32,000 bases of DNA from Geotalea uraniireducens Rf4 (GCF_000016745.1 NC_009483.1:1410001-1442000); one strand, 5' to 3'. Shown: positions 3,699 through 30,144, counted from the first letter of the stretch. The notes: generated from the sequence alone by a model not told the origin. A program made the numbers and translations.

Positions 3699-4094
3699 TC
3701 ATTTTTTCAAGACCTCTGCTACAGTTGTGCAGAATAATCTCGTATCGTCCAGTAGTCGCAGTGCTTCGTTCTTGTCGTAGTACGTTCCGATCTCGTAGTC
3801 GGAATCCTCTCGGATCTTCTGCAAGATGGAGAATATGACGCCAATTTCTTTGGGAATTATGCCGCTCTTGATGAAATGCAGCGAAAAGAGGGTAAGAGCG
3901 CCTTTGTGGCTTTTGGGCACCACATCGATTGATAAAAGCAATGCCCGTGCATAGTGCAGCGCGGCATAGTAGGCCCGCGACAAACCGTCAAGAGTAAGAT
4001 CAAGCTCTATGAGCGCTTCGGCGCTCTTAAGAGAGTCATTACCTCGCTGGAGCAGGAAGGAGATCGGGTTGTCGGTGAGGGACGCATCGCTCAC
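3699..4094 (-). CDS. HEPN-domain protein (toxin partner of the MNT-HEPN pair), 131 aa
   Basis: Small all-helical protein with a C-terminal REDSDY segment at the position of the HEPN Rx4-6H/Y motif. It overlaps the upstream nucleotidyltransferase gene by 4 nt. Confidence 0.8.
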   Translation of the reverse strand: MSDASLTDNPISFLLQRGNDSLKSAEALIELDLTLDGLSRAYYAALHYARALLLSIDVVPKSHKGALTLFSLHFIKSGIIPKEIGVIFSILQKIREDSDYEIGTYYDKNEALRLLDDTRLFCTTVAEVLKK

Positions 4095-4426
4095 AACGGC
4101 ACCATGTCGCGTTCGATTTCCCGCAGGAGGGGAAATCGGGCGGCTTTCTGGTGCTCGAATACTTCGCGCGAGAAGATTACCGGAGAGATATCCACCTCGT
4201 TTTCCAACAATTCGTCATAGGCAATGACGTAGATAGCCCGTTTCGTGTCGAGGTCAACCCGGTTCAGAATCACCGCAACATCAAGGTCAGACCCCTTGTG
4301 GTCATCACCACGCGCCTTTGAGCCAAAGAGAAAACTGAAAAGATAGTTGTCGCTGAAACGTGTCGATACCCTGGCAAGAAAATCCCGCAACGCCAACTCT
4401 TCTTTCTCGCTCAGATTCTTTATCAT
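4091..4426 (-). CDS. Minimal nucleotidyltransferase (MNT) antitoxin-type protein, ~111 aa
   Basis: Trimmed from 4091..4537 to the ATG at 4426 (MIKNLSEKE...). Carries the Pol-beta-type NTase motif GSKARGDDHKGSDLDVAV. Shows the 4-nt overlap with HEPN typical of this TA family. Confidence 0.88.
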   Translation of the reverse strand: MIKNLSEKEELALRDFLARVSTRFSDNYLFSFLFGSKARGDDHKGSDLDVAVILNRVDLDTKRAIYVIAYDELLENEVDISPVIFSREVFEHQKAARFPLLREIERDMVPL

Positions 4427-4455
4427 GAGTCCGCTCCCACGTGAGTAATGAAAGC

Positions 4456-4484
4456 AGTATACCGTTGTCATTATTAAAAAGCAA
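4456..4484 (-). promoter_or_regulatory. Sigma-70-type promoter of the MNT-HEPN operon
   Basis: On the minus strand: TTGCTT (4484-4479), 17 nt, TATACT (4461-4456). Located about 30 nt upstream of the MNT start and inside the repeat-bounded cassette. Confidence 0.55.
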
Positions 4485-4537
4485 TAAATGCAAGGGATTT
4501 GGGGACAACTTGACTTTATTCCGCATCCACATGTCAC

Positions 4538-7590: not shown

Positions 7591-7794
7591 CACCACGGAG
7601 GCACAGAGGCACGGAGAAAAACAAAAGTTACTCCTTCAAACCCTTCACCGCAAAGGACCCAAAGGACCCATAGGGCCTAAAGGACCTAAATCGCGAAGGA
7701 CGCAAAGAAAACCTTTGCTTGATTCTACTTTGCGCACTTTGCGACTTTGCGGTTCAAAGATTTTGATTTCTCGTGTCTCTGTGTCTCCGTGGTG
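7591..7794. repeat. Nested palindromic intergenic element, CGCAAAG family, copy 1
   Basis: Outer arms: CACCACGGAGGCACAGAGGCACGGAGAAA with TTTCTCGTGTCTCTGTGTCTCCGTGGTG. Inner arms: ACCGCAAAGG followed by 7-9 nt units (GACCCAAAG, GGCCTAAAG, GACGCAAAG), pairing with CTTTGCGCACTTTGCGACTTTGCGGTTCAAAGATT. It fills the nifEN-nifX spacer. Confidence 0.85.
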
Positions 7795-8262: not shown

Positions 8263-8526
8263 ATGGCTTACATCACAGGATTGAGAAGAAACAAGACCGA
8301 ATACACCCCCGAGTTCATTAAGACTATCGATGCGGAAACCTGCATCGGCTGCGCCCGCTGCTTCAAGGTCTGCGCCCACGACGTGCTCACCTTCGAAGAG
8401 GTGGACGAGGATGATTCGGCAAAGATGTACATGAAGGTGTCCAACCCGGACAACTGCATCGGCTGTCAGGCCTGCGGCCGGACCTGTTCCAAGAAGTGCT
8501 TTGCTTTTGAGCCGGTAGTGCTTTAA
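8263..8526 (+). CDS. fdxB: nif-specific ferredoxin III type 2x[4Fe-4S] ferredoxin, 87 aa
   Basis: YTPEFIKTIDAETCIGCARCFKVCAHDVL, an acidic insert, then NCIGCQACGRTCSKKC. This spacing and context (after nifX) are typical of nif ferredoxin III. Confidence 0.85.
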   Translation: MAYITGLRRNKTEYTPEFIKTIDAETCIGCARCFKVCAHDVLTFEEVDEDDSAKMYMKVSNPDNCIGCQACGRTCSKKCFAFEPVVL

Positions 8527-8667
8527 AAGGCAGTAAGAAGTAAATCGTGAGTAGTGAGTAGTGAGTAGTGAGTAGTGAGTAGTGAGTAGTAAAACCCAAC
8601 TTTGACGGCTGATTCAGTATTCAACTGCTCACGACTCACTACTTACTATTTACTACTTACGGCTTTT
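8525..8667. repeat. Long asymmetric palindrome built from GTGAGTA heptamers; (GTGAGTA)x6 tandem array at 8547-8588
   Basis: Left arm: AAAAGGCAGTAAGAAGTAAATC followed by six perfect GTGAGTA units. Reverse complement of the right arm: AAAAGCC GTAAGTA GTAAATA GTAAGTA GTGAGTC GTGAGCA. It spans from the fdxB stop to the TAGGAGG RBS of the next gene. Confidence 0.85.
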
Positions 8668-17100: not shown

Positions 17101-17247
17101 AATCTTTGAACCGCAAAGGACCCAAAGGGCCTAAAGCGCAAAGGTCGCAAAGAAAACCCACAAGTGAGCGTCAAATTTAGGGGTAAAACAATAAGAAGTT
17201 TTTGCTTTCCTTAGCGTTCTTTGCGTCTTTGCGGTAAAAAAAGATTT
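17101..17247. repeat. Nested palindromic intergenic element, CGCAAAG family, copy 2
   Basis: Left arm: AATCTTTGAACCGCAAAGGACCCAAAGGGCCTAAAGCGCAAAGGTCGCAAAG. Right arm: CGTTCTTTGCGTCTTTGCGGTAAAAAAAGATT. It shares GAACCGCAAAGGACCCAAAGG with copy 1. Confidence 0.8.
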
Positions 17248-17263
17248 TTGAAGGGAACCGTCC

Positions 17264-18595: not shown

Positions 18596-18800
18596 CCACC
18601 ACAAAGACACGGAGATTCGGAGAAAGCCTTGAAAAATAAAACCATGTAACCGCAAAGGCGCAAAGGGCGCTAAGAAAGAAGTAAAACCGAAAACTTTATT
18701 GGTTATAAAAACATTTAAAGCGGATAAGCCTTTCGATTTTACCTTTGCGTTCTTTGCGCCTTTGCGGTTCAAGGATTTGTCTTTCTCCGTGTCTCTGTGG
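18596..18800. repeat. Nested palindromic intergenic element, CGCAAAG family, copy 3
   Basis: Outer arms: CCACCACAAAGACACGGAGATTCGGAGAAAG with CTTTCTCCGTGTCTCTGTGG. Inner arms: AACCGCAAAGGCGCAAAGGGCGCTAAGAAAG with CCTTTGCGTTCTTTGCGCCTTTGCGGTTCAAGGATT. Confidence 0.85.
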
Positions 18801-18817: not shown

Positions 18818-20803
18818 ATGACCGACCAAGCCATCTTTACCCCGTTACTGATCGCCGCCCTGATCTTCTTTGCCTGGAGCTGCTACAAGCGCTTCAGCCT
18901 GCTGGGGCTCGGCCAGGCCGAAGACCGCTTCCAGCGCATCGACCTGCGCATCTGGGACATGCTCCTCTACGCCTTCGGCCAGAAGCGGGTCATGGCAAAA
19001 CCATTCGGCATCAACCACTGCATCATCTTCTGGTCATTCCTGATCCTGCTCATCGCCAACGGCGAATTCATCCTCGCCGGCGTCCTTCCCGGAGTAAGCC
19101 TGCGGCTCCTTTCCGACGGCATCAGCGGCCCCCTCGTCCTCCTCTGCGACCTGGCCTCCCTGCTGGCCCTGATCGGAGTCATCATCGCCGTCAGCCGGCG
19201 GCTCCTTTTCAAACCCGACTACCTGGACACAGCCTACGTCAAAGGGAGAAGCTTCGAAGGCTTCCTCATCCTCGGCTTCATCGCCCTCCTCATGCTTGCC
19301 TACTTCGGCCTGCACGGAGCCGAAATAGCCATGGGAGAAGAACCGCTCGCCGGCTACATGCCGCTCTCCGCCTTCACCGCCAAATTGCTCCTCGCCTCAC
19401 CTTTGGCCTCGAGCCTCGCACCTTTCGCCTCGTTTGCCTGGTGGCTCCATGCGCTGGTGCTCCTGGCCTTCATCTGCTTCCTCCCCTTGAGCAAACACAT
19501 GCATATCCTCACCGCCATCCCCAACTGCTTCCTCCAGAGCCTGGACAAGCCCAACACCCAGCCCCGGGAAGAATTCAAAAAAGGAGAACAGTTCGGCGTC
19601 GCAGAAGTAAGCCAGTTCACCTGGAAAGACCTGTTCGACGGCTTCTCCTGCACCGAATGCGGTCGCTGCCAGAACGCCTGTCCCGCAACAGCCACCGGCA
19701 AACCCCTCAACCCGCGCCAGGTGATCCACGCCATCAAGACCAACCTCCTCGCCAACGGCCCGTACCTGCAAAGGGGAGAAAAACCGGTCATACCGCTCAT
19801 CGGCGAAGAATCGGAAGGAAGCAACACGGAAGACACCATCTGGTCCTGCACCACCTGCGGCGCCTGCATTGCCGCCTGCCCGGTCATGATCGAGCAGATG
19901 CCGAAGATCATCAAGATGCGCCGGCACCTGGTAGAAATGGAGAGCAAATTCCCCGAAGAACTCCTGAACCTCTTCGAAAACATGGAACAAAGAAGCAACC
20001 CCTGGGGGATCGCACCAAGCGAGCGGACCAAGTGGAGCTCCACCATGGAAGTCAAACCCTTCGAGCAAGGCAAAACCGAATACCTCTTCTACATCGGCTG
20101 CGCCGGCGCCTTCGACTCCCGGGCCAAGCACGTAACAGTAGCACTCGCCACCATCCTCAACGCCGCAAACATCTCCTGGGGAATCCTCGGCAAAGAAGAG
20201 AAATGCTGCGGCGACAGCCTGAGAAGGCTCGGCAACGAATATGTCTTCGACAAGATGGCAAAAGAAAACGTCCAGCTCTTCAAGGAAAAGGGGATCACCA
20301 AGGTCATCACCCAGTGCCCCCACTGTTTCACCACCCTGAAAAACGACTACAAACAGTACGGCATCGAGCTCCAGGTCATCCACCACGCCGAACTGATCGA
20401 CCAGCTCCTCAAAGAAGGCAAGCTGAAGCTGAACAAACAGGTAAAAGAACTCGGCAACATCGTCTTCCACGACTCCTGCTACCTGGGGAGACACAACGAC
20501 ATCTACGAAGCCCCGCGAAGCGTCATCGAAACTGCAACCGGGAACGCCCCGACAGAACTGGAGCGAAAGAAAGACAACTCCTTCTGCTGCGGCGCAGGTG
20601 GCGGGCGGATGTGGATGGAAGAATTCATCGGTGAGCGGATCAACCTGAACCGGGTTACGGAAGCGCTCACAAAAAATCCAGACACCATCTGCGTTACCTG
20701 CCCCTACTGCATGACCATGTTCGAGGACGGCCTCAAGGACAAGCAGGCAGGACAGACGAAGGTAAGGGACATCGCGGAGCTGGTGGCGGAAGGGCTGAGG
20801 TGA
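18818..20803 (+). CDS. Membrane-bound Fe-S oxidoreductase: N-terminal multi-TM (cytochrome b/NarI-like) domain, 2x[4Fe-4S] and two CCG (HdrD/GlpC-like) domains, ~661 aa
   Basis: Start taken at the ATG at 18818 (GAGG 8 nt upstream; the track start at 18797 is GTG). About five hydrophobic helices in the first 240 aa. CTECGRCQNACP and CTTCGACIAACP clusters. CCG motifs EKCCGDS and SFCCGAGGG. The architecture matches Etf:quinone-type oxidoreductases of anaerobes. Confidence 0.9.
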   Translation: MTDQAIFTPLLIAALIFFAWSCYKRFSLLGLGQAEDRFQRIDLRIWDMLLYAFGQKRVMAKPFGINHCIIFWSFLILLIANGEFILAGVLPGVSLRLLSDGISGPLVLLCDLASLLALIGVIIAVSRRLLFKPDYLDTAYVKGRSFEGFLILGFIALLMLAYFGLHGAEIAMGEEPLAGYMPLSAFTAKLLLASPLASSLAPFASFAWWLHALVLLAFICFLPLSKHMHILTAIPNCFLQSLDKPNTQPREEFKKGEQFGVAEVSQFTWKDLFDGFSCTECGRCQNACPATATGKPLNPRQVIHAIKTNLLANGPYLQRGEKPVIPLIGEESEGSNTEDTIWSCTTCGACIAACPVMIEQMPKIIKMRRHLVEMESKFPEELLNLFENMEQRSNPWGIAPSERTKWSSTMEVKPFEQGKTEYLFYIGCAGAFDSRAKHVTVALATILNAANISWGILGKEEKCCGDSLRRLGNEYVFDKMAKENVQLFKEKGITKVITQCPHCFTTLKNDYKQYGIELQVIHHAELIDQLLKEGKLKLNKQVKELGNIVFHDSCYLGRHNDIYEAPRSVIETATGNAPTELERKKDNSFCCGAGGGRMWMEEFIGERINLNRVTEALTKNPDTICVTCPYCMTMFEDGLKDKQAGQTKVRDIAELVAEGLR

Positions 20804-20876
20804 GTTCTACGTTCTAAGTTCTAGGTTCTATGTTGAAAAACACCAACGTAGAACATAGAACGTAGAACTTAGAACC
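20804..20876. repeat. Palindrome made of GTTCTAN heptamers
   Basis: Left arm: GTTCTAC GTTCTAA GTTCTAG GTTCTAT GTT. Loop: GAAAAACACC. Right arm: AAC GTAGAAC ATAGAAC GTAGAAC TTAGAAC C. It starts on the base after the TGA stop and ends 17 nt before the next ATG. Confidence 0.85.
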
Positions 20877-20893: not shown

Positions 20894-21583
20894 ATGCTGA
20901 TCGTTATCCAGAATGATCCTGAAGTACCGCTTGGGGCCTATGCCGATTATCTGGCGGAGCTTGACGTGCCGTACCGGCTGTTTCATCCGTACGAGGAGGA
21001 GATGCTGCCGGAGGCCGGGGAGGTAAGCGCCGCTATCGTCCTCGGCGGAGCCATGGGTGTGCACGATACGGACAGGCACCCCTTTCTCCGCGAGGTGAAC
21101 TGTTTCATCGGCGGTGCGATAGCCCAGGATCTGCCGTTCCTCGGCATCTGTCTCGGCGGGCAGCTCCTGGCTAGTCTTTTGGGGGCGCCGGTCACCACTA
21201 ATTCCCCTTTCGGCGAGAAGGGGACCCTGCCGGTCACCCTGACCGACGACGGGGAGGCCGATCCCCTCTTTGCCGGGATCGACCGGGAGTTCGTCACCTT
21301 CCAGTGGCACAACGACAGTTTCGTCGTCCCCGAAGGCGGGGTGCTGCTCGCCTCCTCCACCGCCTGCCCGGACCAGGCGTTTCGCTACGGCTCCAACGCA
21401 TACGGAATCCAGTTCCATCCCGAGGTAAACCGGGAGATAGTTGCCAACTGGAGCAGCTGGACCGAGGAGACCGCCGCCCGTACCGGCCAGTTCCTGGCTG
21501 AATTTGACCACCGTGCAGAAGATTACAACGCCGCGTCCCGCCAATTGCTTGTCAATTTCCTCCGCATTGCCCGCCTCGACTAA
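20894..21583 (+). CDS. Class I (GATase1) glutamine amidotransferase-domain protein, 229 aa
   Basis: Nucleophile elbow PFLGICLGGQLLA, and YGIQFHPE carrying the His-Glu of the triad. Confidence 0.88.
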   Translation: MLIVIQNDPEVPLGAYADYLAELDVPYRLFHPYEEEMLPEAGEVSAAIVLGGAMGVHDTDRHPFLREVNCFIGGAIAQDLPFLGICLGGQLLASLLGAPVTTNSPFGEKGTLPVTLTDDGEADPLFAGIDREFVTFQWHNDSFVVPEGGVLLASSTACPDQAFRYGSNAYGIQFHPEVNREIVANWSSWTEETAARTGQFLAEFDHRAEDYNAASRQLLVNFLRIARLD

Positions 21584-21684
21584 GTTTCGCCCAACTACGG
21601 GGATGCTGCGGAGAAACCCGCAGACCTTTTGAGCAGTTCAACAGAAATCTTCCCACCAAACTTCGTATTTCCAGATGGTAACGC

Positions 21685-21713
21685 TTGACGTTAATAATGG
21701 CTTGCGTTAATAT
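21685..21713 (+). promoter_or_regulatory. Sigma-70-type promoter of higBA with direct-repeat operator
   Basis: TTGACG (21685-21690), 17 nt, TAATAT (21708-21713). CGTTAATA is repeated twice across the promoter. The ATG lies 8 nt after the -10 element with no SD. Confidence 0.55.
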
Positions 21714-21720
21714 TTCAATA

Positions 21721-22002
21721 ATGATCAATTCCTTTAGGTGCAAAGAAACTGAAAAGTTATTCAACGGCAAATTTTCCTCCAAGTTGCCACAGGCAATACA
21801 GCGCCTTGCCGCTCGAAAACTTGACTATCTGGATGGTGCCGGGGATCTTGATGACTTGCGTTCCCCTCCCGGAAACCGTCTGGAAACTTTAAAGGATGAT
21901 CGCGCCGGACAACACAGCATTCGCATTAATGACCAGTGGCGCATCTGTTTTGTATGGCGTGACAATAACGCCTTCGATGTCGAAATCGTTGACTACCATT
22001 AA
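21721..22002 (+). CDS. higB: HigB-type (RelE/ParE superfamily, killer protein) toxin, ~93 aa
   Basis: Trimmed from 21685. MINSFRCKETEKLFNGKFSSKLPQAIQRLAARKLDYL...GNRLETLKGDRAGQHSIRINDQWRICFVW is the characteristic HigB pattern. The toxin gene lies upstream of the antitoxin gene. Confidence 0.88.
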   Translation: MINSFRCKETEKLFNGKFSSKLPQAIQRLAARKLDYLDGAGDLDDLRSPPGNRLETLKDDRAGQHSIRINDQWRICFVWRDNNAFDVEIVDYH

Positions 22003-22012
22003 GGAGTATTTT

Positions 22013-22318
22013 ATGAGCAAAAGAGATTTTCCTCCAATTCATCCTGGTGAAATCTTGCGCGAAGAATTTCTAATTCCGCTTGGTATCAGTCAGTACCGAC
22101 TCGCAAAGGAAATACACGTTCCGGCTCGTCGCATAAACGAGATCGTACTTGAAAAGCGTGGGATTTCCGCGGATACCGCGCTTCGCCTGGGACGCTATTT
22201 CGGCACGACGGCGCAGCTTTGGATTAACCTGCAAGCACGGTATGATCTTGAGGTAGCGCGTGACGCGATTGAAGATAAGCTGGAAGCTGAAATTAAGCCA
22301 TTGAAAAGGGCGGCATGA
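22013..22318 (+). CDS. higA: HigA antitoxin (XRE-type HTH), ~101 aa
   Basis: Trimmed from 21896 to the ATG at 22013 (RBS AAGGAG). PIHPGEILREEFLIPLGISQYRLAKEIHVPARRINEIVLEKRGISADTALRLGRYFGT. Confidence 0.9.
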   Translation: MSKRDFPPIHPGEILREEFLIPLGISQYRLAKEIHVPARRINEIVLEKRGISADTALRLGRYFGTTAQLWINLQARYDLEVARDAIEDKLEAEIKPLKRAA

Positions 22319-22744
22319 AGACCCTGGCCAAGGCGGCGGAGGAACATAGACCCCTCCGACTGCCTCTATGGCCAGAGATTTCAGGAAGACTCCCAAGTTT
22401 CAACCGATACCCAACTTCCCGCTTTGTGAGACCCCGCTGTAGCCGTCTCTATGGCCACAACGAGATAACCTGATACATGCCCTGATAGCTATCCCCTTTG
22501 AATCCTTACCTTTTTTTAGAAGTGTAAAATTTTTTACACTCATTTTTCACCTAACCCTGCGATATTTCAATTGATTTTGCAATATTTCTCGTGTAGAAAC
22601 GACTAGCGTGCATTAATGATCCAGCACTGGGCGCGCGATGGCCTTCGATGGACAAAGTATCAGCGAAAAAAACCGGAATGGCCGGAGTTGCATGTGATTG
22701 GCGAAGCTTTCGAATAGTTGCAGTGATTGAGGAGGGAAGCACAT

Positions 22745-22924
22745 ATGCTTTATAAGCAAATAAGACATTGTATTTGGTTTATTACTCTTACTACGCTTAC
22801 CGGGTGTTCTTGGCCTAATGTTAAACTCATGGGTGATGAATACTTGCTTTCGCCCCCCAAAACACATGAACAGCCTCAACAGAGTATAAATCAGGTGCCC
22901 CCACAGCCACTTGATTCCAACTAA
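22745..22924 (+). CDS. Possible small lipoprotein, 59 aa
   Basis: The ATG at 22745 is preceded by GAGGAGGG. MLYKQIRHCIWFITLTTLTGCSW has a lipobox-like LTGC. No recognisable family, short length and an AT-rich context make this tentative. Confidence 0.35.
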   Translation: MLYKQIRHCIWFITLTTLTGCSWPNVKLMGDEYLLSPPKTHEQPQQSINQVPPQPLDSN

Positions 22925-23032
22925 AGCAAAAGGGTTAAAAAAATTCAGCATATCTCGCAACAATTGGGGCTGGACAAGTCGTTACAAGAGCGGATCAAAG
23001 GGTTGCAGATTAAAAATTCCCTTTTCAAGGCC

Positions 23033-23064
23033 TGACCCTTGTGCCCTTTGACCCTTGTGCCCTT
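23033..23064. repeat. Tandem duplication 2 x 16 nt (TGACCCTTGTGCCCTT)
   Basis: Two perfect adjacent copies at 23033-23048 and 23049-23064, 66 nt upstream of the lipoprotein gene. Confidence 0.85.
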
Positions 23065-23130
23065 CCACATCGGCAAGCCGTTGGCAAAACCCAGAAAAAG
23101 ATGAACAATTAATGTTATCTGGAGGGTAAC

Positions 23131-23817
23131 GTGAGAATTTTAAGATGCTTAGTTCGTTTACTGGCCCTTATTTCGATTCAAGCAATGCTATTCGGCTGCG
23201 GTAGTAGCAACGACACTGTTGCGCCTAATGTGGGCAAGACGCGCAAACTCCTGGTTGGGGATAGCTGGACTTATGATGTCAGCGGGCAGTCTCAATCGGG
23301 TAGTTTTTCCGGCACGTCAATATTGAACATTACTCAAGATACCTTAGCCGGAGTATCCGTACTTGCTGCGACATCAACAGTTAGCGGCGTTTTGAACGGA
23401 TCAAATACTAGCAGTACATCAGTAACCTATATGCAGCAGGATGCAACCACCGGTGACCTTCTTCTATATGGACTCAAGGATACTAATACAAATAATGTGG
23501 CAGTCACCGTTACCGACCGGCCATTACCTATCATGTGGCCTGGAAATTGGGAAGCAGGTAAGACCATCAATGCAACTGCCCACTATAGTAATGGCACCAC
23601 TGAATCAATCTCATATTCCATTATTGGGCAAGAATCTGTAGCTACTCCAACAGGGGCCGTAACAGCTTGGAAACTCATTATATCAGTTTCGTCAAATGCA
23701 ATTATGTCAACTGGTACTTTTTGGTTTTCACCAGAGATCGGTAATTACATAAAAATGGATGTCACTAACAGTGCTGGCAGTTCTAGTACCATCTTGAGAA
23801 GCACAACAGTCAAATGA
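23131..23817 (+). CDS. Lipoprotein of unknown function, 228 aa
   Basis: GTG start 5 nt after GGAGGG. Signal peptide with lipobox MLFGC. Ser/Thr/Asn-rich beta-type sequence with no recognised family. Confidence 0.7.
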   Translation: MRILRCLVRLLALISIQAMLFGCGSSNDTVAPNVGKTRKLLVGDSWTYDVSGQSQSGSFSGTSILNITQDTLAGVSVLAATSTVSGVLNGSNTSSTSVTYMQQDATTGDLLLYGLKDTNTNNVAVTVTDRPLPIMWPGNWEAGKTINATAHYSNGTTESISYSIIGQESVATPTGAVTAWKLIISVSSNAIMSTGTFWFSPEIGNYIKMDVTNSAGSSSTILRSTTVK

Positions 23818-23838
23818 AAACAGTTAGGGGAGGCTAGA

Positions 23839-23940
23839 GGGACGTTGCTTGCTAGTTAGCTAAAAGAGTCTGCATGATTCAGTATAGCAAGATAGCAAGC
23901 AACGTCCCCCTTTTGGTCCTCAACGTCCCCCTTTTGGTCC
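23839..23940. repeat. Perfect 16-bp-arm hairpin followed by a 2 x 20 nt tandem repeat
   Basis: GGGACGTTGCTTGCTA (23839-23854) pairs with TAGCAAGCAACGTCCC (23893-23908). CAACGTCCCCCTTTTGGTCC occurs at 23900-23919 and 23921-23940. It is preceded by AGGGGAGGCTAGAG, which recurs at 24961-24974. Confidence 0.85.
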
Positions 23941-24055
23941 CCTCTGCTATAATCTCCTCTCAACATAACTATGTGAACATTTAGCAATTTCGGTCAGGAT
24001 TGACTCTCGGCAATGTGGTAGGATTACCCCTGAATTGAGGTGGACGCCGGTGAAC

Positions 24056-24916
24056 ATGGATAAGGCAAAAGCATACGCGCAGCGGTTCGACAGGGTGTTC
24101 GAGTATATCGAGCAGCATCTGGACGAACCATTGACCGTCGAGCAGCTGAGCCGGGTAGCGCATTTCTCGAAGTTCCATTTCCATCGGCAATTTTCCCAGT
24201 ATGTCGGTATCGGTGTCTTCGCCTATGTCCGCCAGCTGCGGCTCAGGCAGGCATCCTACCGGCTTGTCTTTCGTCGGCACGAACGGATCATCGATATTGC
24301 TCTGGATGCCGGTTTCGAGAGTCCGGAAGCGTTTTCCCGCGCCTTCAGACAGGTCTTCGGACAATCCCCTTCTCAATTCAGAAAATCACCCCAATGGCAG
24401 CCGTGGAGCGAGAGCTTTCGGCTTCCGCACCGAGAAAGGAGAGAAAAGATGGATGTGAAGATTGTCGATTTTGCCGAGACACAAATTGCGGTCCTGGCAC
24501 ACCGAGGCGCGCCGGAACAACTCAACGATTCGGCTCTGAAATTTATCGAATGGCGCAAACAAAGCAGGCTGTCGCCGGTAAAAACGAGCAGGACCTTCGG
24601 CATCGCCTATGACGATCCCGAATCGACCGAACCGGAGCTGTTCCGCTTCGATATCTGTGGCGCAGTTTCAGAGAAGGTGCCGAATAACCCGCAGGGGGTG
24701 GGAAACGGAGTCATCCCTGGTGGTCGCTGCGCTGTGGTCCGGCATCTCGGTTCCCACGATCGCATTGGCGAGACCGTCTATCCACTCTATCGCGCGTGGT
24801 TGCCCGAGAGCGGCGAGAAGCTGCGCGATTTCCCACTCTATTTTCACTACTTGAATCTGATTCCGGACGTGGCCGAACATGAGCTGGTAACCGATATCTA
24901 TCTACCGCTGAAGTAG
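24056..24916 (+). CDS. AraC-family transcriptional regulator with C-terminal GyrI-like effector-binding domain, ~286 aa
   Basis: N-terminal double HTH (LTVEQLSRVAHFSKFHFHRQFSQYVG..., IIDIALDAGFESPEAFSRAFRQVFGQSPSQFR). C-terminal GyrI-like/SRPBCC-like half (VKIVDFAETQIAVLAHRG...YLPL). The start is ambiguous: TTG 24035, GTG 24050 or ATG 24056. Confidence 0.9.
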   Translation: MDKAKAYAQRFDRVFEYIEQHLDEPLTVEQLSRVAHFSKFHFHRQFSQYVGIGVFAYVRQLRLRQASYRLVFRRHERIIDIALDAGFESPEAFSRAFRQVFGQSPSQFRKSPQWQPWSESFRLPHRERREKMDVKIVDFAETQIAVLAHRGAPEQLNDSALKFIEWRKQSRLSPVKTSRTFGIAYDDPESTEPELFRFDICGAVSEKVPNNPQGVGNGVIPGGRCAVVRHLGSHDRIGETVYPLYRAWLPESGEKLRDFPLYFHYLNLIPDVAEHELVTDIYLPLK

Positions 24917-25010
24917 TTGTCATACACATCGCCTGGGGCTCCGGCAACCTGGAGAAAATCAGGGGAGGCTAGAGTGAGGGCGAGTGGGCAAGTGAGGGCG
25001 AGGGGGCAGG

Positions 25011-25156
25011 CTTCCAGATGCCAAGATGAAGTGCAGAAGGCGGCCAAACGGCCGCCTTTGCTGTTTACGGTGTCCTGCGTAAAAGAATTTGCTTAATCTC
25101 CAGGATGTGCGATTCTAACCCCGGTTGGTTGAGAACGGAATTCGTCGGGGATTACC
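25011..25156 (+). repeat. About 146-bp repeat element, copy A (full length)
   Basis: CTTCCAGATGCCAAGATGAAGTGCAGAAGGCGGCCAAACGGCCGCCTTTGCTGTTTACGGTGTCCTG...TCCAGGATGTGCGATTCTAAC...GAATTCGTCGGGGATTACC. Alignable by eye over its full length with copy C, and over its first half with copy B. Confidence 0.85.
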
Positions 25157-25231
25157 TGCTGAGGTGGCCGGGGATGAGGCAGCACTGAATAAACTTTGAC
25201 CTCCAAATGGGCCAGAATAGGATAAATGTGA

Positions 25232-25633
25232 TTACGCTGATTGTTTGCGGTGAATATATTGATCCGCAGCCTGGGCCAATAGACCGGAACGAGTCATGTG
25301 GTACTGCTCGGCATAACGGTCGATCTCATGCAGCAGATTTTCAGACATGGTTATATTAACCCGCTTTGCTTTAACTTTGAGCTTGGAAAGATCAATGTCT
25401 ACCAAGAGCCATACCCCTCCTTGATATTCGGGGTTAGCAGCCAATTGTTCTAATGGTGTTGGTGCAGGCACAGGCATATCTTCGCCTTCAAAATAGACTT
25501 CTGCGGCCTCTTGGATCATGTGTGGTAAATCCTCCCACTCGTCGGCGGCAGAGAAACAGCCGGGAAAGTCGGGGATAGTTACTCCGTGGGCGTGTTGATC
25601 GTCTCCAATGTGAACATATGCGGGGTATAACAT
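25232..25633 (-). CDS. hicB: HicB antitoxin (HicB N-domain plus ribbon-helix-helix), 133 aa
   Basis: MLYPAYVHIGDDQHAHGVTIPDFPGCFSAADEWEDL is the HicB fold signature. C-terminal RVNITMSENLLHEIDRYAEQYHMTRSGLLAQAA is a CopG/RHH domain. Lies 1 nt after the hicA stop. Confidence 0.9.
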   Translation of the reverse strand: MLYPAYVHIGDDQHAHGVTIPDFPGCFSAADEWEDLPHMIQEAAEVYFEGEDMPVPAPTPLEQLAANPEYQGGVWLLVDIDLSKLKVKAKRVNITMSENLLHEIDRYAEQYHMTRSGLLAQAADQYIHRKQSA

Positions 25634-25634
25634 G

Positions 25635-25823
25635 TTATCTCCATTCCCAACCAGCTTGCCGGTAAATGTTCCGCAAGGTTCCGGTTGGCATGTCTTTACG
25701 TGGATGTGGCACTACCACATGACCAGCTTTTGACGGATGTTTGTGCTTCTGGTGGTCACCTTTGCCTCCGACACAACACCATCCCTCGTTTTCAAGTCGT
25801 TTGATGATCTCTTTGCTGGTCAT
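25635..25823 (-). CDS. hicA: HicA mRNA-interferase toxin, 62 aa
   Basis: MTSKEIIKRLENEGWCCVGGKGDHQKHKHPSKAGHVVVPHPRKDMPTGTLRNIYRQAGW is the canonical HicA dsRBD-like pattern with catalytic His. Confidence 0.92.
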   Translation of the reverse strand: MTSKEIIKRLENEGWCCVGGKGDHQKHKHPSKAGHVVVPHPRKDMPTGTLRNIYRQAGWEWR

Positions 25824-25829
25824 AGGCTA

Positions 25830-25858
25830 ACTATACACACCAATACACACCGTGTCAA
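25830..25858 (-). promoter_or_regulatory. Sigma-70 promoter of hicAB (near-consensus)
   Basis: On the minus strand: TTGACA (25858-25853), 17 nt, TATAGT (25835-25830). The ATG begins 7 nt after the -10 element with no SD. Confidence 0.6.
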
Positions 25859-25915
25859 AGGAGAAGTAGCGGGGCTAACTTTCCAATTCGAACTTTTTAA
25901 AAGAGGGCGCGGGGT

Positions 25916-25986
25916 CTTCCAGGATGCCAAGATGAAGTGTAGAAGGGGGCGGCCAAACGGCCGCCTTTGTTGTTTACGGTGTCCTG
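25916..25986 (+). repeat. Repeat element, copy B (first half only, ~71 bp)
   Basis: CTTCCAGGATGCCAAGATGAAGTGTAGAAGGGGGCGGCCAAACGGCCGCCTTTGTTGTTTACGGTGTCCTG. It differs from copy A by a few substitutions, a 1-nt indel and a 3-nt indel. Confidence 0.85.
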
Positions 25987-26010
25987 TGAACGTCTGAGAG
26001 TTACGCTAGT

Positions 26011-28290
26011 TCATCGACGCGCTCCCACGAAAGAGAGCTTCCAGATGTCTACATCATTCACTGGCAGTGTCTGGTAAACCCAGGTGTTACCGCCGTCGCT
26101 GGTATGCAGAATGGAGCCTCTAGGGAGTTCCGAAGGCGATGACATACCCCGGTACCCGCCTATCCATGCATGCTGCTTGTCGATGGCGGAGACTCCTTCG
26201 TAGACATAATTCGGGAAGGTCCAGTCACTTTTTATGACGTCATTGCCGACGATCTTGACCCGCATGACATACCCTGCTGCGCCGTTCTGTACGGCCCATG
26301 CTTCATCCGCACTGACTGCGCAGACATCGTCGATGTCGTTGGGGCCGGCAATACCCGGTGCATCTATTTTCCAGGTGAGGCCTCCATCCATGGTGCGGTA
26401 GAGTTCCCCCTGCAGGTTCACCGAGGTCCATGCGACCTTTTTGTTCACAATACTGGCTGTCATGGGGCCGTGGCCGCGGTCCACTCCCGGCAGATATTCC
26501 TGACGCCATGTCCGGCCACCATCCGGAGAATGGATCATCCCGTTTTCACCGTTGCCAAAATCGGCAATCCAAATATCTTTTCCCAGTACATCCATCCGGT
26601 TGACCTGTTTTATGGTTATCCCCGGCGTAGGAACAATCTCCCACCTTTTACCGCCGTTGTTCGTATGCATGACCGGCCCATGCAGACCAACGGCCCACGC
26701 CTCTTTCCGGCCGACGCCCTTGATCCCTTTCACTCCATCCTGAATTACCTGGGGCAGTGCCTGCACTTTCCATGTCTTTCCGCCATCTTTCGTGTGGAGA
26801 ATCATCCCCTCCTCTCCAGTGTCATTACCACCCAGTGCCGCCCAGGCGGTTCTCTTATCCACAGCGCTGATATCATTGGCGTTGTGCCCTTTCCAGAGTG
26901 ACCCGTCTCCCTGAACCTCCCAGGTTTTACCACCGTTGTCAGTATGCAGGATCACCGCGGTCTTGTCCGGGTCATTACCGATTGCCCAACCAGCATTGGA
27001 CATATACACGGTCCTGAGGGGGAATGTGACGGTTTCGGCAATAACCGGAGGGTCATAGACGTGAGGCGTCTCGTCGGAATCGTCCTCTTTGACAGAGGCG
27101 ACAAAAATCTGCTTTGCTGTGGCCACATTATTTGTCGGATCCACAGTGACCTTGAGATAGCCAAGCTTCCTTGTTTCTCCAAACTGGTACCAGACCGCAT
27201 AGGGGTCTCCAGCGTTAATGTCTGCAAATCTGCCCCCGGCGGTACCGACGATGAAATAGGTGATACCCTCTACTGAATATCTCTGGTAGTTATGGGTATG
27301 GCCCGCGAAATTAGCGCTTATACCGTAGGTATGATACAGAGTTTCCCATGGCTGAAGGTCAGGGTTGAGCGTACTCCTCCCATAATCCCAGATCGGGTGG
27401 TGATGCATGGTAAATGTACCACGCATCTTATTGTCCAGAAGCGACTCGAGCCAGGATGCCTGACTCTCGGCAAGGGCCAGGGACGTTTGCGGATCATCAC
27501 TGTCGGTGTTGTTCGGATCCGGACTGTCAAGAATGATAAACCGGATGCCGGCACAATCAAAAAAATGGTTCAGGGGCGCACCAGGGAGTATATCGTAGGA
27601 CCAATGGTATTGGTCGGCTGCAGTAGGCGGGTAGCTCCCGCCTTCGTTATGGTATTCATGGTTTCCGATAGTGGTAAAGATGGGGAATTTCGCGAGCATC
27701 GGGTCGGCAACCTTGAAATATTTGGCCCATAACGACTCTGAATCATGACCTGCATAGTCTCCACCGTGAAGGATAAAAAGCACATCCTGCTCCTTTGCAA
27801 TGGCATCTGCTACGTACTTGAACCGTTTTTCTTCCGTATAATTATGGCCCTCTTGTGAATCACTGATGACAATAAAGGTAAAGGGACCTTTGACCGGCAT
27901 CGTCCGGAAGGTGCGGTTGCTGAAGACGTCCGCATTGTCTGAAGGTCTCACCCTATACACATACGAGGTATTCGGTTCAAGGCCGGTAAGCTGTACATGT
28001 TGATAGGGACCCGTTATCCGAGATGATTTCTTTTTTTGGAATTTTTGATGTTTCTCATAAAAACTCGACTTGGCGTACTCTACTGTGCCCGCCCCAAGGT
28101 TTTCTCCTCGCCAGTTGATGGTCGCAGAATTTATGGTGGTTTTCGTTACCCATGGAGCCCAGTAATTGTCCGATGTTACGGCCACTTCGCCTGGTGTGAG
28201 GCTGTCACTGCTGTAGGCAGGGGCAATGAATACACCAGTTGCCACCAGAGCAAATATCGCTACGACAAGCCACCCTCGATAGACTCGCAT
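26011..28290 (-). CDS. Secreted fusion protein: purple-acid-phosphatase-like N-domain, calcineurin-type metallophosphoesterase and six-repeat BNR/Ycf48-like beta-propeller, ~759 aa
   Basis: Trimmed from 28470 to the ATG at 28290 (RBS GGAGGAGGG). Signal peptide MRVYRGWLVVAIFALVATGVFIAPAYS. MPE motifs ISDSQ, GGDYAG, GNHEY, HHHP, GHTHNYQRY. Six Asp-box repeats: TDNGGKTW, TKDGGKTW, TNNGGKRW, SPDGGRTW, TMDGGLTW, TSDGGNTW. Confidence 0.88.
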   Translation of the reverse strand: MRVYRGWLVVAIFALVATGVFIAPAYSSDSLTPGEVAVTSDNYWAPWVTKTTINSATINWRGENLGAGTVEYAKSSFYEKHQKFQKKKSSRITGPYQHVQLTGLEPNTSYVYRVRPSDNADVFSNRTFRTMPVKGPFTFIVISDSQEGHNYTEEKRFKYVADAIAKEQDVLFILHGGDYAGHDSESLWAKYFKVADPMLAKFPIFTTIGNHEYHNEGGSYPPTAADQYHWSYDILPGAPLNHFFDCAGIRFIILDSPDPNNTDSDDPQTSLALAESQASWLESLLDNKMRGTFTMHHHPIWDYGRSTLNPDLQPWETLYHTYGISANFAGHTHNYQRYSVEGITYFIVGTAGGRFADINAGDPYAVWYQFGETRKLGYLKVTVDPTNNVATAKQIFVASVKEDDSDETPHVYDPPVIAETVTFPLRTVYMSNAGWAIGNDPDKTAVILHTDNGGKTWEVQGDGSLWKGHNANDISAVDKRTAWAALGGNDTGEEGMILHTKDGGKTWKVQALPQVIQDGVKGIKGVGRKEAWAVGLHGPVMHTNNGGKRWEIVPTPGITIKQVNRMDVLGKDIWIADFGNGENGMIHSPDGGRTWRQEYLPGVDRGHGPMTASIVNKKVAWTSVNLQGELYRTMDGGLTWKIDAPGIAGPNDIDDVCAVSADEAWAVQNGAAGYVMRVKIVGNDVIKSDWTFPNYVYEGVSAIDKQHAWIGGYRGMSSPSELPRGSILHTSDGGNTWVYQTLPVNDVDIWKLSFVGARR

Positions 28291-28453
28291 AAAGCCCTCC
28301 TCCGTGCTGCTGTTAGCCACATGACGTAGTTCGGTTCGCCGTAAGGGAGAAGAAATAGGCAAACATTGTGTAGTGGCGTTCAACGGCTGATAAAGTAGCT
28401 TCGGGAAACTAAGGGTTTGAATATTGGTTGTAAAATTAAACATCTTTAACAAG

Positions 28454-28481
28454 ATTTTATATATTTCCATTGGGTTGTCAA
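28454..28481 (-). promoter_or_regulatory. Candidate sigma-70 promoter of the phosphoesterase-propeller gene
   Basis: On the minus strand: TTGACA (28481-28476), 16 nt, TAAAAT (28459-28454). This implies a leader of about 160 nt. Confidence 0.45.
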
Positions 28482-28522
28482 TGCGCCGAAAGTGACACCT
28501 CTCCAGAAGAAATCTATGGGGT

Positions 28523-28673
28523 CTACCAAGATGACAAGATGAAGAGTAGAAGGCGACCGATGGGCCGCCTTCGCTGTTTCCGGCGTCCCGTCGTGCAAAA
28601 AGATTTTGCTTTATATCCAGGATGTGCGATTCTAACGCCGTCCGGCAGAAAGTAGAATTCGCCGGGGATTACC
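28523..28673 (+). repeat. Repeat element, copy C (full length, more diverged)
   Basis: CTACCAAGATGACAAGATGAAGAGTAGAAGGCGACCGATGGGCCGCCTTCGCTGTTTCCGGCGTCCCG...TCCAGGATGTGCGATTCTAAC...GAATTCGCCGGGGATTACC. It ends 16 nt before the GTG start of the exonuclease-RNase H gene. Confidence 0.85.
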
Positions 28674-28689
28674 CGCGTCGGGAGGGAAT

Positions 28690-30144
28690 GTGAACGCAGC
28701 GCCGCAGCTCTATGTGCTGGACGGGTCCAGTTACATCTACCGCGCCTATTATGGCGTCCGGGATCTTGCCACCTCTGGCGGAATGCCGACCAATGCCGTA
28801 TTCGGGTTTACCCGGATGCTCCTCGGCCTCCTGCAGGAGAACCGCCCCGATTACCTCGCCGTCGTACTCGATCCCCCCCGGGAAGAGACCTTTCGCCGGG
28901 AGCTCTATCCCGCATACAAGGCCCATCGGGACGCCATGCCCGCGGATCTTGTGCCCCAGCTGCCGTACATAAGGCAAATCCTGCAGGCCCTCAATATCCC
29001 GGCCCTGGAAGCTCCCGGTTTTGAGGCCGACGATGTCATTGCCACCCTGGCCCGCCGCTATGCCGCAGAAGGAATAGAGGTCACGGTCGTCACCGGCGAC
29101 AAGGATCTGCTGCAGATTGTCGGCGACGGGATCAATCTCTTGGATACCATGAAGGATCTGCGTTCCGGGCCGCAAGAGGTCCTCGACCGCTTCGGTGTCC
29201 CGCCGGAGCTGGTGCCCGATGTTCTGGGGCTGGCCGGTGATACCTCGGACAATATCCCGGGAGTTCCCGGGATCGGCGAGAAGACCGCTGCCGAGCTGGT
29301 CCGGCGGTTCGGTTCCCTGGAAGGGGTTCTCCAGTGGAAAAGTCTGGTGAATGGCAAGCAGCGCCGGGAAAATCTGCACGCCCATGCCGACCAGGCCCGG
29401 CTCTCGAAAACCCTGGCCACCGTCCGCTATGACGTTCCGCTGGATCTGTCCTTGGCCGAACTGGAGCGCCGGACGCCGAACCTCCCGGAGTTGATGCCCC
29501 TGCTGCGGGAGCTGGAATTTTCGGCTCTGGAGGTCGCCTTCACCCCGCCGCCGCCTGGCGTGGTCGAGATCTACTGCGACGGCTCGGGCAGAGACTCCGG
29601 GCCCGGCGGGTACGGGGTGATCCTGCGCTATGGGGAGCATGAAAAGGAGTTGAGCGGTTTTGAGGCCGCCTCCACCTCCCAGCGGATGGAACTGACGGCG
29701 GCGATCAGGGGGCTGGAAGCGTTGCATAAACCGCGGAGGGTGCGCGTCTTCAGCGATTCACAGTACCTTGTCCGGGGGATGAGCGAATGGCTTCATGGTT
29801 GGATTCGCACCGGGCGCCTGGAGACCCCGGACGCTCTCAAGAACCAGGACCTCTGGCAAAAGCTTTCTGCCCTGTCCGCTAACCATGAGGTCACCTGGGA
29901 ATGGGTGCGCGGCCATGACGGGCATCCTTTCAATGAGCGCTGCGACAGGCTGGCAAAGCGGGCGGCTGAGGCGGGGATTCGGGTGACAGAGGAGAGAGTC
30001 CGGGCAGCACAACAATCCGAGGAACGCGAAAAGAAAGAGAAAGCTATCCCGTTGCCGGTCGCCCCTGCCAAGCCGGCACCGGTTCAGGTCAGGGAGGAGA
30101 CAGCATACGAGGCCGATGCTGACGGTCAGCTGCTGCTCTGTTGA
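28690..30144 (+). CDS. 5'-3' exonuclease (Pol I N-terminal/FEN-like) fused to RNase HI, 484 aa
   Basis: GTG start after GGGAGGG. N-terminal YVLDGSSYIYRAYY, GFEADDVIATLA, VTGDKDLLQ and H3TH GDTSDNIPGVPGIGEKTA. C-terminal RNase HI: EIYCDGS(G), QRMELTAAIRGLEAL, VFSDSQYLV, WVRGHDGHPFNERCDRLA. Confidence 0.9.
   Translation: MNAAPQLYVLDGSSYIYRAYYGVRDLATSGGMPTNAVFGFTRMLLGLLQENRPDYLAVVLDPPREETFRRELYPAYKAHRDAMPADLVPQLPYIRQILQALNIPALEAPGFEADDVIATLARRYAAEGIEVTVVTGDKDLLQIVGDGINLLDTMKDLRSGPQEVLDRFGVPPELVPDVLGLAGDTSDNIPGVPGIGEKTAAELVRRFGSLEGVLQWKSLVNGKQRRENLHAHADQARLSKTLATVRYDVPLDLSLAELERRTPNLPELMPLLRELEFSALEVAFTPPPPGVVEIYCDGSGRDSGPGGYGVILRYGEHEKELSGFEAASTSQRMELTAAIRGLEALHKPRRVRVFSDSQYLVRGMSEWLHGWIRTGRLETPDALKNQDLWQKLSALSANHEVTWEWVRGHDGHPFNERCDRLAKRAAEAGIRVTEERVRAAQQSEEREKKEKAIPLPVAPAKPAPVQVREETAYEADADGQLLLC

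Follow-up and report, generated by a model that had tools for sequence, protein, structure and literature searches.

A repeat element of about 165 nt stands in three co-oriented copies upstream of a gene for a 5'-3' exonuclease-RNase H fusion (exo) in Geotalea uraniireducens Rf4, where a stretch of 32,000 nucleotides was analyzed (GCF_000016745.1 NC_009483.1:1410001-1442000; hereafter the window, in which all positions are counted unless another locus is named). An earlier note on this DNA had read the copies as recombination sites at the borders of gene cassettes, and as a candidate for a new mobility system. Comparison with related loci led us to a different view: in all fetched loci the element is the resident upstream region of exo and, judged by conservation and position, the gene's native terminator-promoter-leader unit. 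The interval between exo and an upstream GATase gene is an ordinary hotspot for the insertion of genes and does not represent a new mobile element. The element is conserved in position, the region is hypervariable and mosaic in structure, and the break points of the copies vary. We consider it probable, at roughly 65%, that the locus grew by serial recombination-driven insertion at this hotspot, anchored on the conserved 5' region of exo.

Three copies of the element in the window

A repeat search and MAFFT alignment revealed three direct repeats in the window, all on the plus strand. A nhmmer profile built from four full copies recovered the same three with scores far above chance and found no further copy in the 32 kb, bearing out the number, orientation and places given in the earlier note. 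The element measures ~165 nt when full, and the copies range from 85 to 165 nt. The features of the copies and of exo are as follows:

24974-25159, plus strand: copy A including its tandem units (18-nt units at 24974-25009, CAAGATG x2 repeat)
24995-25159, plus strand: copy A, displaced full copy (nhmmer E 1e-53)
25039-25056, plus strand: hairpin of copy A, followed by a T-tract at 25057-25066
25089-25094, plus strand: -35-like TTGCTT of copy A, with -10-like TGc-GATTCT at 25108-25116 and a leader up to ACCTGC
25160-25226, plus strand: 67-nt flank specific to copy A, ending at the junction with the hicB cassette
25904-25990, plus strand: copy B, first half only (profile match, positions 2-85, nhmmer E 1e-21; the element ends at 25986)
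25948-25965, plus strand: hairpin of copy B, now 3' of the metallophosphoesterase (MPE) gene
28512-28676, plus strand: copy C, exo-proximal full copy (nhmmer E 1e-51)
28512-28689, plus strand: copy C with the ribosome-binding site (RBS) of exo; hairpin 28552-28569, T-tract 28570-28579
28606-28611, plus strand: -35-like sequence of copy C, with TGc-GATTCT at 28625-28633, the leader and the RBS GGGAGGG at 28680-28686
28690-30144, plus strand: exo, 5'-3' exonuclease and RNase H fusion with a GTG start (Pfam 5_3_exonuc_N, 5_3_exonuc, RNase_H)

The left limit of the copies lies ~15-35 nt beyond the earlier estimate and reaches the 17-18-nt tandem units at 24974-25009. Copy A follows the end of an AraC/GyrI-type regulator gene by 94 nt (24916 to 25011) and 16 nt separate the end of copy C from the GTG start of exo at 28690, both as had been described. 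The hairpin GGCGGCCAAACGGCCGCC (at 25039 in A and 25948 in B), the 21-mer block TCCAGGATGTGCGATTCTAAC (25099 in A, 28616 in C) and GGGGATTACC (25147 in A, 28664 in C) were likewise present where the note had placed them, the GC hairpin being preceded by GTAG or GCAG. The bulged hairpin that it had proposed from GCGATTCTAAC and GTAGAATTCGC was neither stable nor conserved in the predicted folds.

Copies A and C are 76.5% identical and copies B and C 73.5%, and they are therefore not fresh duplicates of one another. Copy A shared 92-94% identity with relatives' single copies, whereas copy C reached 73-82% with any of the other copies.

The element as the 5' region of exo

Homologues of exo numbered 4426 at E<=1e-50, with named matches from Geobacter, Geobacteraceae and Desulfuromonadales. 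The loci compared (given by L-numbers) were those of exo orthologues of 87-94% protein identity, with flanks of up to 10 kb a side; two loci from DNA pattern scans were compared as well, one of them in its longer context. In every orthologous locus fetched, the element or its promoter-proximal part stood directly 5' of exo. The exo-adjacent element was of full length in L004/L007 and L006, was present from the hairpin onward in L009, copy 3 of L010, L013 and L016 (profile ~36-41 to 164), and from the promoter block onward in L008, L014 and L015 (profile ~46-77 to 164). In L011 and L012 a leader remnant alone preceded exo, and a co-directional gene ends just upstream.

Within this conserved part, the -35 variants contain TTG (TTGCTT, or TTGTGC/TTGCGC), and an extended -10 (TGc-GATTCT or TGc-GATGCT) follows 16-18 nt after the -35 and 57-62 nt before the start codon. 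This -10 has A2 and T6 without exception in L006-L010, L013-L014 and L016; in L015 they are harder to make out. The leader of ~60 nt ends in ACCCGCGTCGGGAGAGAATGTG, which comprises the RBS and the start codon. The hairpin with its T-tract received a terminator-like score in copy B, and the hairpin is also present in A and C. Taken together, the hairpin with T-tract, the conserved promoter-like block and the leader argue that the element is the terminator-promoter-leader unit of exo. The hairpin would act as an insulating terminator, the promoter is probably of the sigma-70 type (TTGCTT - 16 nt - TGc GATTCT), and copy C is the predicted functional copy beside exo. No Rfam family matched at its gathering score in the window, and the region 24900-28750 gave chance-level matches only (E 5-9).

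Other readings of the element were tried and set aside. A small open reading frame (ORF) through the first half (MKCRRRPNGRLCCLRCPA) is without an RBS, crosses the hairpin, differs in length in copy C and has no ATG in L009 and L013. A minus-strand small RNA starting from TAGAAT in the 21-mer is less likely: it would have a poor -35 and a weaker terminator, and the plus-strand promoter better suits the position before exo. A Geobacter LexA box (consensus GGTTNNCNNNNGNNNACC) was absent from the element on inspection.

Displaced partial copies precede co-oriented genes a few kb upstream of exo in L012 (4258-4381, before an acetyltransferase gene) and L015 (3921-4011, before pqiA). This suggests that old copies of the element can take on a new role as promoters.

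A hotspot between the GATase gene and exo

The interval upstream of exo, its borders and its genes, together with the genes found upstream of exo in relatives, are listed here:

20894-21583, plus strand: GATase gene, conserved left border (Pfam GATase)
21590-28511, unstranded: strain-variable low-GC interval (higBA, DUF3108 lipoprotein, palindrome I13, AraC/GyrI, copy A, hicBA, copy B, MPE)
24035-24916, plus strand: AraC-type helix-turn-helix and GyrI-like regulator gene (Pfam HTH_AraC, HTH_18, GyrI-like, Cass2)
25232-25633 and 25635-25823, minus strand: hicB and hicA (Pfam HicB_lk_antitox, HicA_toxin)
26011-28290, minus strand: MPE gene, metallophosphoesterase / purple-acid-phosphatase-N / BNR propeller (Pfam Metallophos, Pur_ac_phosph_N, BNR)
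L004/L007, upstream of exo: Y1_Tnp-DnaA_C, PNPOx, GntR-aminotransferase
L006, upstream of exo: a toxin-antitoxin pair, then hicBA
L008/L014, upstream of exo: small hypothetical genes
L009, upstream of exo: hydrolase-OsmC
L010, upstream of exo: higBA, 66 aa, 514 aa, SBBP, Metallophos-370, 543 aa

Up to position 21589, the GATase flank shares 95% identity with L010 and 85% with L007/L004, and the exo flank is 89-94% identical to relatives. Between them, GC content is 42-55%, as against 58-66% in the flanks, and gene content differs in L004/L007, L006, L008/L014, L009, L010, L015 and L016. Syntenic conserved flanks thus enclose strain-specific content with compositionally atypical accessory genes, which are the marks of a hotspot.

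The AraC/GyrI gene was absent upstream of exo in all relatives and, on this comparison, is an accessory gene and not the ancestral neighbor of exo. The earlier note had supposed an ancestral order of araC, element and exo, and had proposed a search of relatives for empty sites. Loci with a single element before exo were indeed found (L004/L007 and L006), and this part of the supposition stands; the araC part does not, as no relative has that gene as left neighbor.

The two cassettes proved to be self-contained insertions with near-consensus promoters, as the note had held. A promoter scan placed the hicA promoter (TTGACA-17-TATAGT) at 25858-25830 and the MPE promoter (TTGACA-16-TAAAAT) at 28481-28454, both on the minus strand. 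The closest homologue of the MPE protein beyond the same strain was 75% identical over 54% of the length and the next full-length homologue 45% identical, leaving the fusion without a close full-length relative. The protein search did not find a donor for the MPE gene together with copy C.

Further observations concern other parts of the interval. The higB-higA pair (21685-22318) is an insertion that separates the GATase gene from a conserved 66-nt segment (22490-22555); in L007/L004 this segment follows directly after the GATase gene (L007 961-1042). Palindrome I13, with 27-nt arms (23827-23943), is followed by the tandem AACGTCCCCCTTTTGGTCC x2; it recurs with 94% identity at another position in the hotspot of L010 (9861-9973) and is a second small module travelling within the hotspot. 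The L007 hotspot contains a gene with Y1_Tnp (HUH) and Bac_DnaA_C domains (1141-2139), of which there is none in the hotspots of the window or L010.

Mosaic history of the locus

L004/L007 have one full element between the GntR-aminotransferase gene and exo, and L006 has hicB-hicA, one full element and exo, without the MPE gene. Positions 25221-25986 are contiguous in L006 at 97.5% identity, and the L006 element runs on from there into its second half and exo. Since the L006 sequence continues past the equivalent of 25986, copy B is the resident element of an L006-like ancestor, still attached to hicBA and presumably truncated at 25986 by insertion of the MPE gene.

Copy A with its flank (25008-25226) is 96% identical to copy 1 of L005/L010, where it is followed by the SBBP gene. 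In L010, three copies lie in one orientation, separated by other cassettes (SBBP, Metallophos-370 and the 543-aa gene); copy 2 of L010 is a full element plus 33 nt of exo coding sequence, with the break at CTGGACGGGT|ATATACCCGT, and copy 3 (profile 36-164) adjoins exo. The window is thereby a mosaic in which 25008-25226 matches L010, 25221-25986 matches L006 and 25987 to ~28650 is strain-unique, followed by exo. The junction between the A flank and hicB falls within a 5-nt microhomology, AAGAT/AGGAT, common to both parental arrangements (L010 and L006).

The first 100 nt of copy C are 76% identical to L004/L006/L007, and exo is 90-98% identical between strains. Because copy C is this divergent beside so conserved a gene, it was probably imported with the MPE gene, replacing the resident second half, and is unlikely to be a local duplicate. 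This goes against the earlier idea that the element was duplicated at each boundary, as copy C would be a divergent import and copy B a truncated resident copy as in L006.

Break points were scattered. Displaced copies end on the right at profile position 85 (B), at 164 (A; copy 1 of L010) or 33 nt inside the coding sequence of exo (copy 2 of L010); the left ends of exo-proximal copies lie at 1, 36, 46, 77 and ~105. One site-specific crossover therefore cannot have produced the copies.

Several small features accompany the element. Its left edge carries 17-18-nt tandem units (GAGAGGGCGCGGGGTCA x2, at 24974-25009); the window has a similar tandem, reversed, at 23030-23065, and L007 a further instance (~4210-4245). 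A diverged relic of the tandem lies at 1940-1993 in L006, where both 8-nt CAAGATGA units are jointly changed to CAAGTTGA. The 13-mer GGGGAGGCTAGAG occurs before palindrome I13 (23827) and again before copy A (24962). A promoter-like TTGACC-16-TAGGAT (25196-25223) closes the A flank and is aimed antisense into the 3' end of hicB; it is kept in L005/L010 and aimed there into another gene. That the 67-nt flank might be decayed 5' coding sequence of exo was considered and rejected, with no similarity seen and 743 of 1000 shuffles scoring as high or higher.

Confinement of the element to one locus

A pattern from the first half of the element, searched across 185,579 species, each represented by one genome, returned a single locus, L004, upstream of exo in a Geobacter metagenome-assembled genome. 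A pattern from the 21-mer returned a single metagenome locus, L005, within the GATase-exo interval of another strain. The one locus from the species scan is the same locus as in the window, and this confinement counts against the mobility reading of the earlier note, as does the position of its supposed cassette-border site in the resident region upstream of exo.

Plasmids gave distant hicAB matches only (Acinetobacter and Marinobacter), and phages gave two short matches only, of 72-73% identity and outside the repeats. Viral contigs yielded one match, which fell within an ORF of 60 aa or more whose flanks were unrelated; none of these contigs had the first-half pattern, the A flank or I13. 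Motifs of the element were also absent from the multicopy families of G. bemidjiensis (PMC2996986, supplements).

Proposed mechanism and rival explanations

In the reading that we prefer, incoming DNA would pair homologously with the conserved sequence of exo and its leader, and its other end would be joined illegitimately, by homology-facilitated illegitimate recombination (HFIR) or a related RecA-dependent event. The incoming fragment would bring the donor version of the exo 5' region, which would become the working copy beside exo, and the resident copy would be displaced upstream, whole or truncated. Selection may then ensure that exo retains a functioning promoter and leader beside it. 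Insertions of this kind are known to arise by HFIR (PMC3240628).

Several points weigh against this reading and the view of the element on which it builds. A generic promoter scan does not call the promoter site of the element, so that we infer its promoter function. The consensus fold of the leader is weak (-9.6 kcal/mol, with 1 of 14 pairs compensatory), and for this reason we make no claim of a structured RNA. Three co-oriented copies occur in two strains with the intervening cassettes all on the opposite strand, which is more regular than random illegitimate insertion predicts, and copy A with its 67-nt flank has different genes on both sides in the two strains, so that extra events are needed. 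Finally, no donor genome with the order MPE gene, C-type element and exo was found, and we thus infer the import of copy C from its divergence only.

Other routes to the same arrangement were weighed. The repeats might be of the attL/attR type and delimit small islands, whose tyrosine or serine integrase would target the 5' end of exo, with a replacement promoter carried along and the integrase since lost or acting in trans. Such islands would account for direct repeats flanking low-GC inserts, for the foreign look of copy C (as an island-supplied substitute 5' region) and for the single element of L004/L007, whose sequence changes at GGGGATTACCCGC from A-like (left) to C-like (right), as expected of an attB site. 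However, no recombinase or integrase Pfam family was found among the scanned window ORFs (~100 aa or more) or among the genes listed for the flanks that were fetched (at most 10 kb on each side; L010, L006 and other loci), in agreement with the earlier note as regards the window. The inserts measure only 0.7-2.6 kb, the ends of displaced and proximal copies vary, and no identical core is common to all junctions, which makes the island explanation quite unlikely. Alternatively, units of cassette plus element could be moved by RecA-dependent recombination between copies, through an excised circle and Campbell-style integration and with no dedicated enzyme. We judge this unlikely too, if slightly less so. 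Displaced and proximal copies do overlap, as duplicates and not as split halves, in the window, L010, L012 and L015, and a single crossover near GAATTCGYCGGGGATTACC would yield the A/C hybrid pattern relative to L004. Pure homologous exchange, however, would make neither a copy B that is cut mid-element nor an L010 copy 2 that enters exo coding sequence; the second half of the L006 element is not C-like, so L006 is not a B x C product; and no cassette with element was seen at any other locus.

A dedicated enzyme elsewhere in the genome is harder still to reconcile with the data. It would be very unlikely for the exo upstream element to serve as docking site for an unrecognised cassette-acquisition system, with a recombinase elsewhere (e.g. 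the Y1-HUH/DnaA_C protein of one relative's hotspot, acting on the GTAG-preceded hairpin) and with arrays such as A-hicBA-B-MPE-C and the three copies of L010 built and reshuffled enzymatically. The related proposal, that a new system dedicated to cassette capture, integron-like or acting as HUH/Y1 on this hairpin, uses the element itself as its recombination site, we take to be the most improbable of all. It could draw on the three-copy co-oriented arrays with different cassettes in two strains, on the resemblance of the GTAG/GCAG-preceded hairpin to repetitive extragenic palindromic (REP) sequences and on the Y1_Tnp and DnaA_C gene inside the L007 hotspot. Yet neither an end-to-end attC-like fold nor R''/R' boxes were seen in the element, break points are inconstant, the element is confined to one locus, and a Y1 gene is absent from the window and from the L010 hotspot. 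In addition, the second half of the element is kept with exo even in array-free loci.

On the reading of serial, exo-anchored insertion, the stacked copies would keep the order of the insertion events and offer a natural example of hotspot growth, and the locus would show, as a case study, how environmental Geobacter can acquire genes through one-sided anchoring by homology. It also cautions that direct repeats bracketing cassettes need not mark the site of a recombinase. A candidate new mobility system is removed, the repeat being the regulatory region of a core gene itself.

Other features of the window

Intergenic 9-nt tandem arrays (CAAAGGACC..., CTTTGCGNN...) form long imperfect palindromes at 7646-7772, 17109-17254 and 18633-18787. 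These arrays (families D1, D5 and D8; pairs I2 and I6) adjoin nif, ETF and Hdr-type genes, and are similar to direct repeats that have been described from subsurface Geobacter as multicopy and intergenic (PMC2996986). A palindrome with 44-nt arms, located downstream of a Nitro_FeMo-Co gene, consists of GTGAGTAGT-type tandem units (8526-8667; I1, I3-I5 and I7). Another palindrome with 25-nt arms (20803-20869; I12, 92% complementary, AGTTCTACGTTCTAAGTTCTAGGTT) is made of short repeats and lies between the Hdr-CCG and GATase genes. On the minus strand, a HEPN and nucleotidyltransferase gene pair (3699-4537) is likely a toxin-antitoxin module.

Comparison with known systems

Integron attC arrays and clusters of attC sites lacking integron-integrases (CALIN) share with the locus repeats of ~60-150 nt that separate co-oriented cassettes, including toxin-antitoxin modules. 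Unlike in integrons, there is no IntI, no palindromic attC fold or R''/R' core sites, the cassettes have strong promoters of their own and the crossovers vary. CALIN arrays can lack IntI, and its absence alone is therefore not decisive. When copies A and C were folded as single-stranded DNA, on both strands, only local hairpins formed, without end-to-end pairing. The sequence TTCTAAC in the element is no R'' box: its R position is occupied by Y, the sequence is not conserved (L008 has GCTGAC), and a GTTRRRY partner is lacking. A constant recombination point was not found at the cassette boundaries, where displaced and proximal ends are scattered.

The short GC palindrome preceded by GTAG/GCAG recalls REP sequences and bacterial interspersed mosaic elements with RAYT, as well as the ends of IS200/IS605. 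Unlike in REP/RAYT systems, the element has one locus per genome and is not dispersed, the hairpin is a small part of its 85-165 nt, and there is no adjacent RAYT gene. Nor do its ends (CTTCCAGATGCC... / ...GGGGATTACCTGC) form inverted repeats or lie beside duplicated flanks, as looked for with insertion sequences and miniature inverted-repeat transposable elements. That none of the attC, REP/RAYT and IS200-type sites fits had already been recognized in the earlier note. With the att duplications of gene-end islands, the locus has in common that direct repeats flank the insert and that the target-adjacent copy is foreign; it is unlike them in having no integrase, no constant core and very small inserts. 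The 'minimal mobile elements' of Neisseria resemble this locus as well.

The short tandem units of the element's left edge and of the window resemble multicopy intergenic direct repeats of subsurface Geobacter (PMC2996986). HFIR would be matched in the conserved anchor on one side, the variable junctions on the other, the 5-nt microhomology at one junction and the truncation of resident sequence. Unlike documented HFIR, the present case is known from comparative sequence only, and the donor of the MPE gene and copy C was not found. Chromosomal integration hotspots between core genes are known in E. coli and Listeria (PMC2617782, PMC3556495). The GATase-exo interval is like these in its conserved flanks, strain-variable low-GC content, toxin-antitoxin and secreted-protein genes and lack of a local recombinase. 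Unlike the hotspots described, this one has stacked two to three co-oriented copies of a regulatory region that belongs to the core gene at its border and is carried along.

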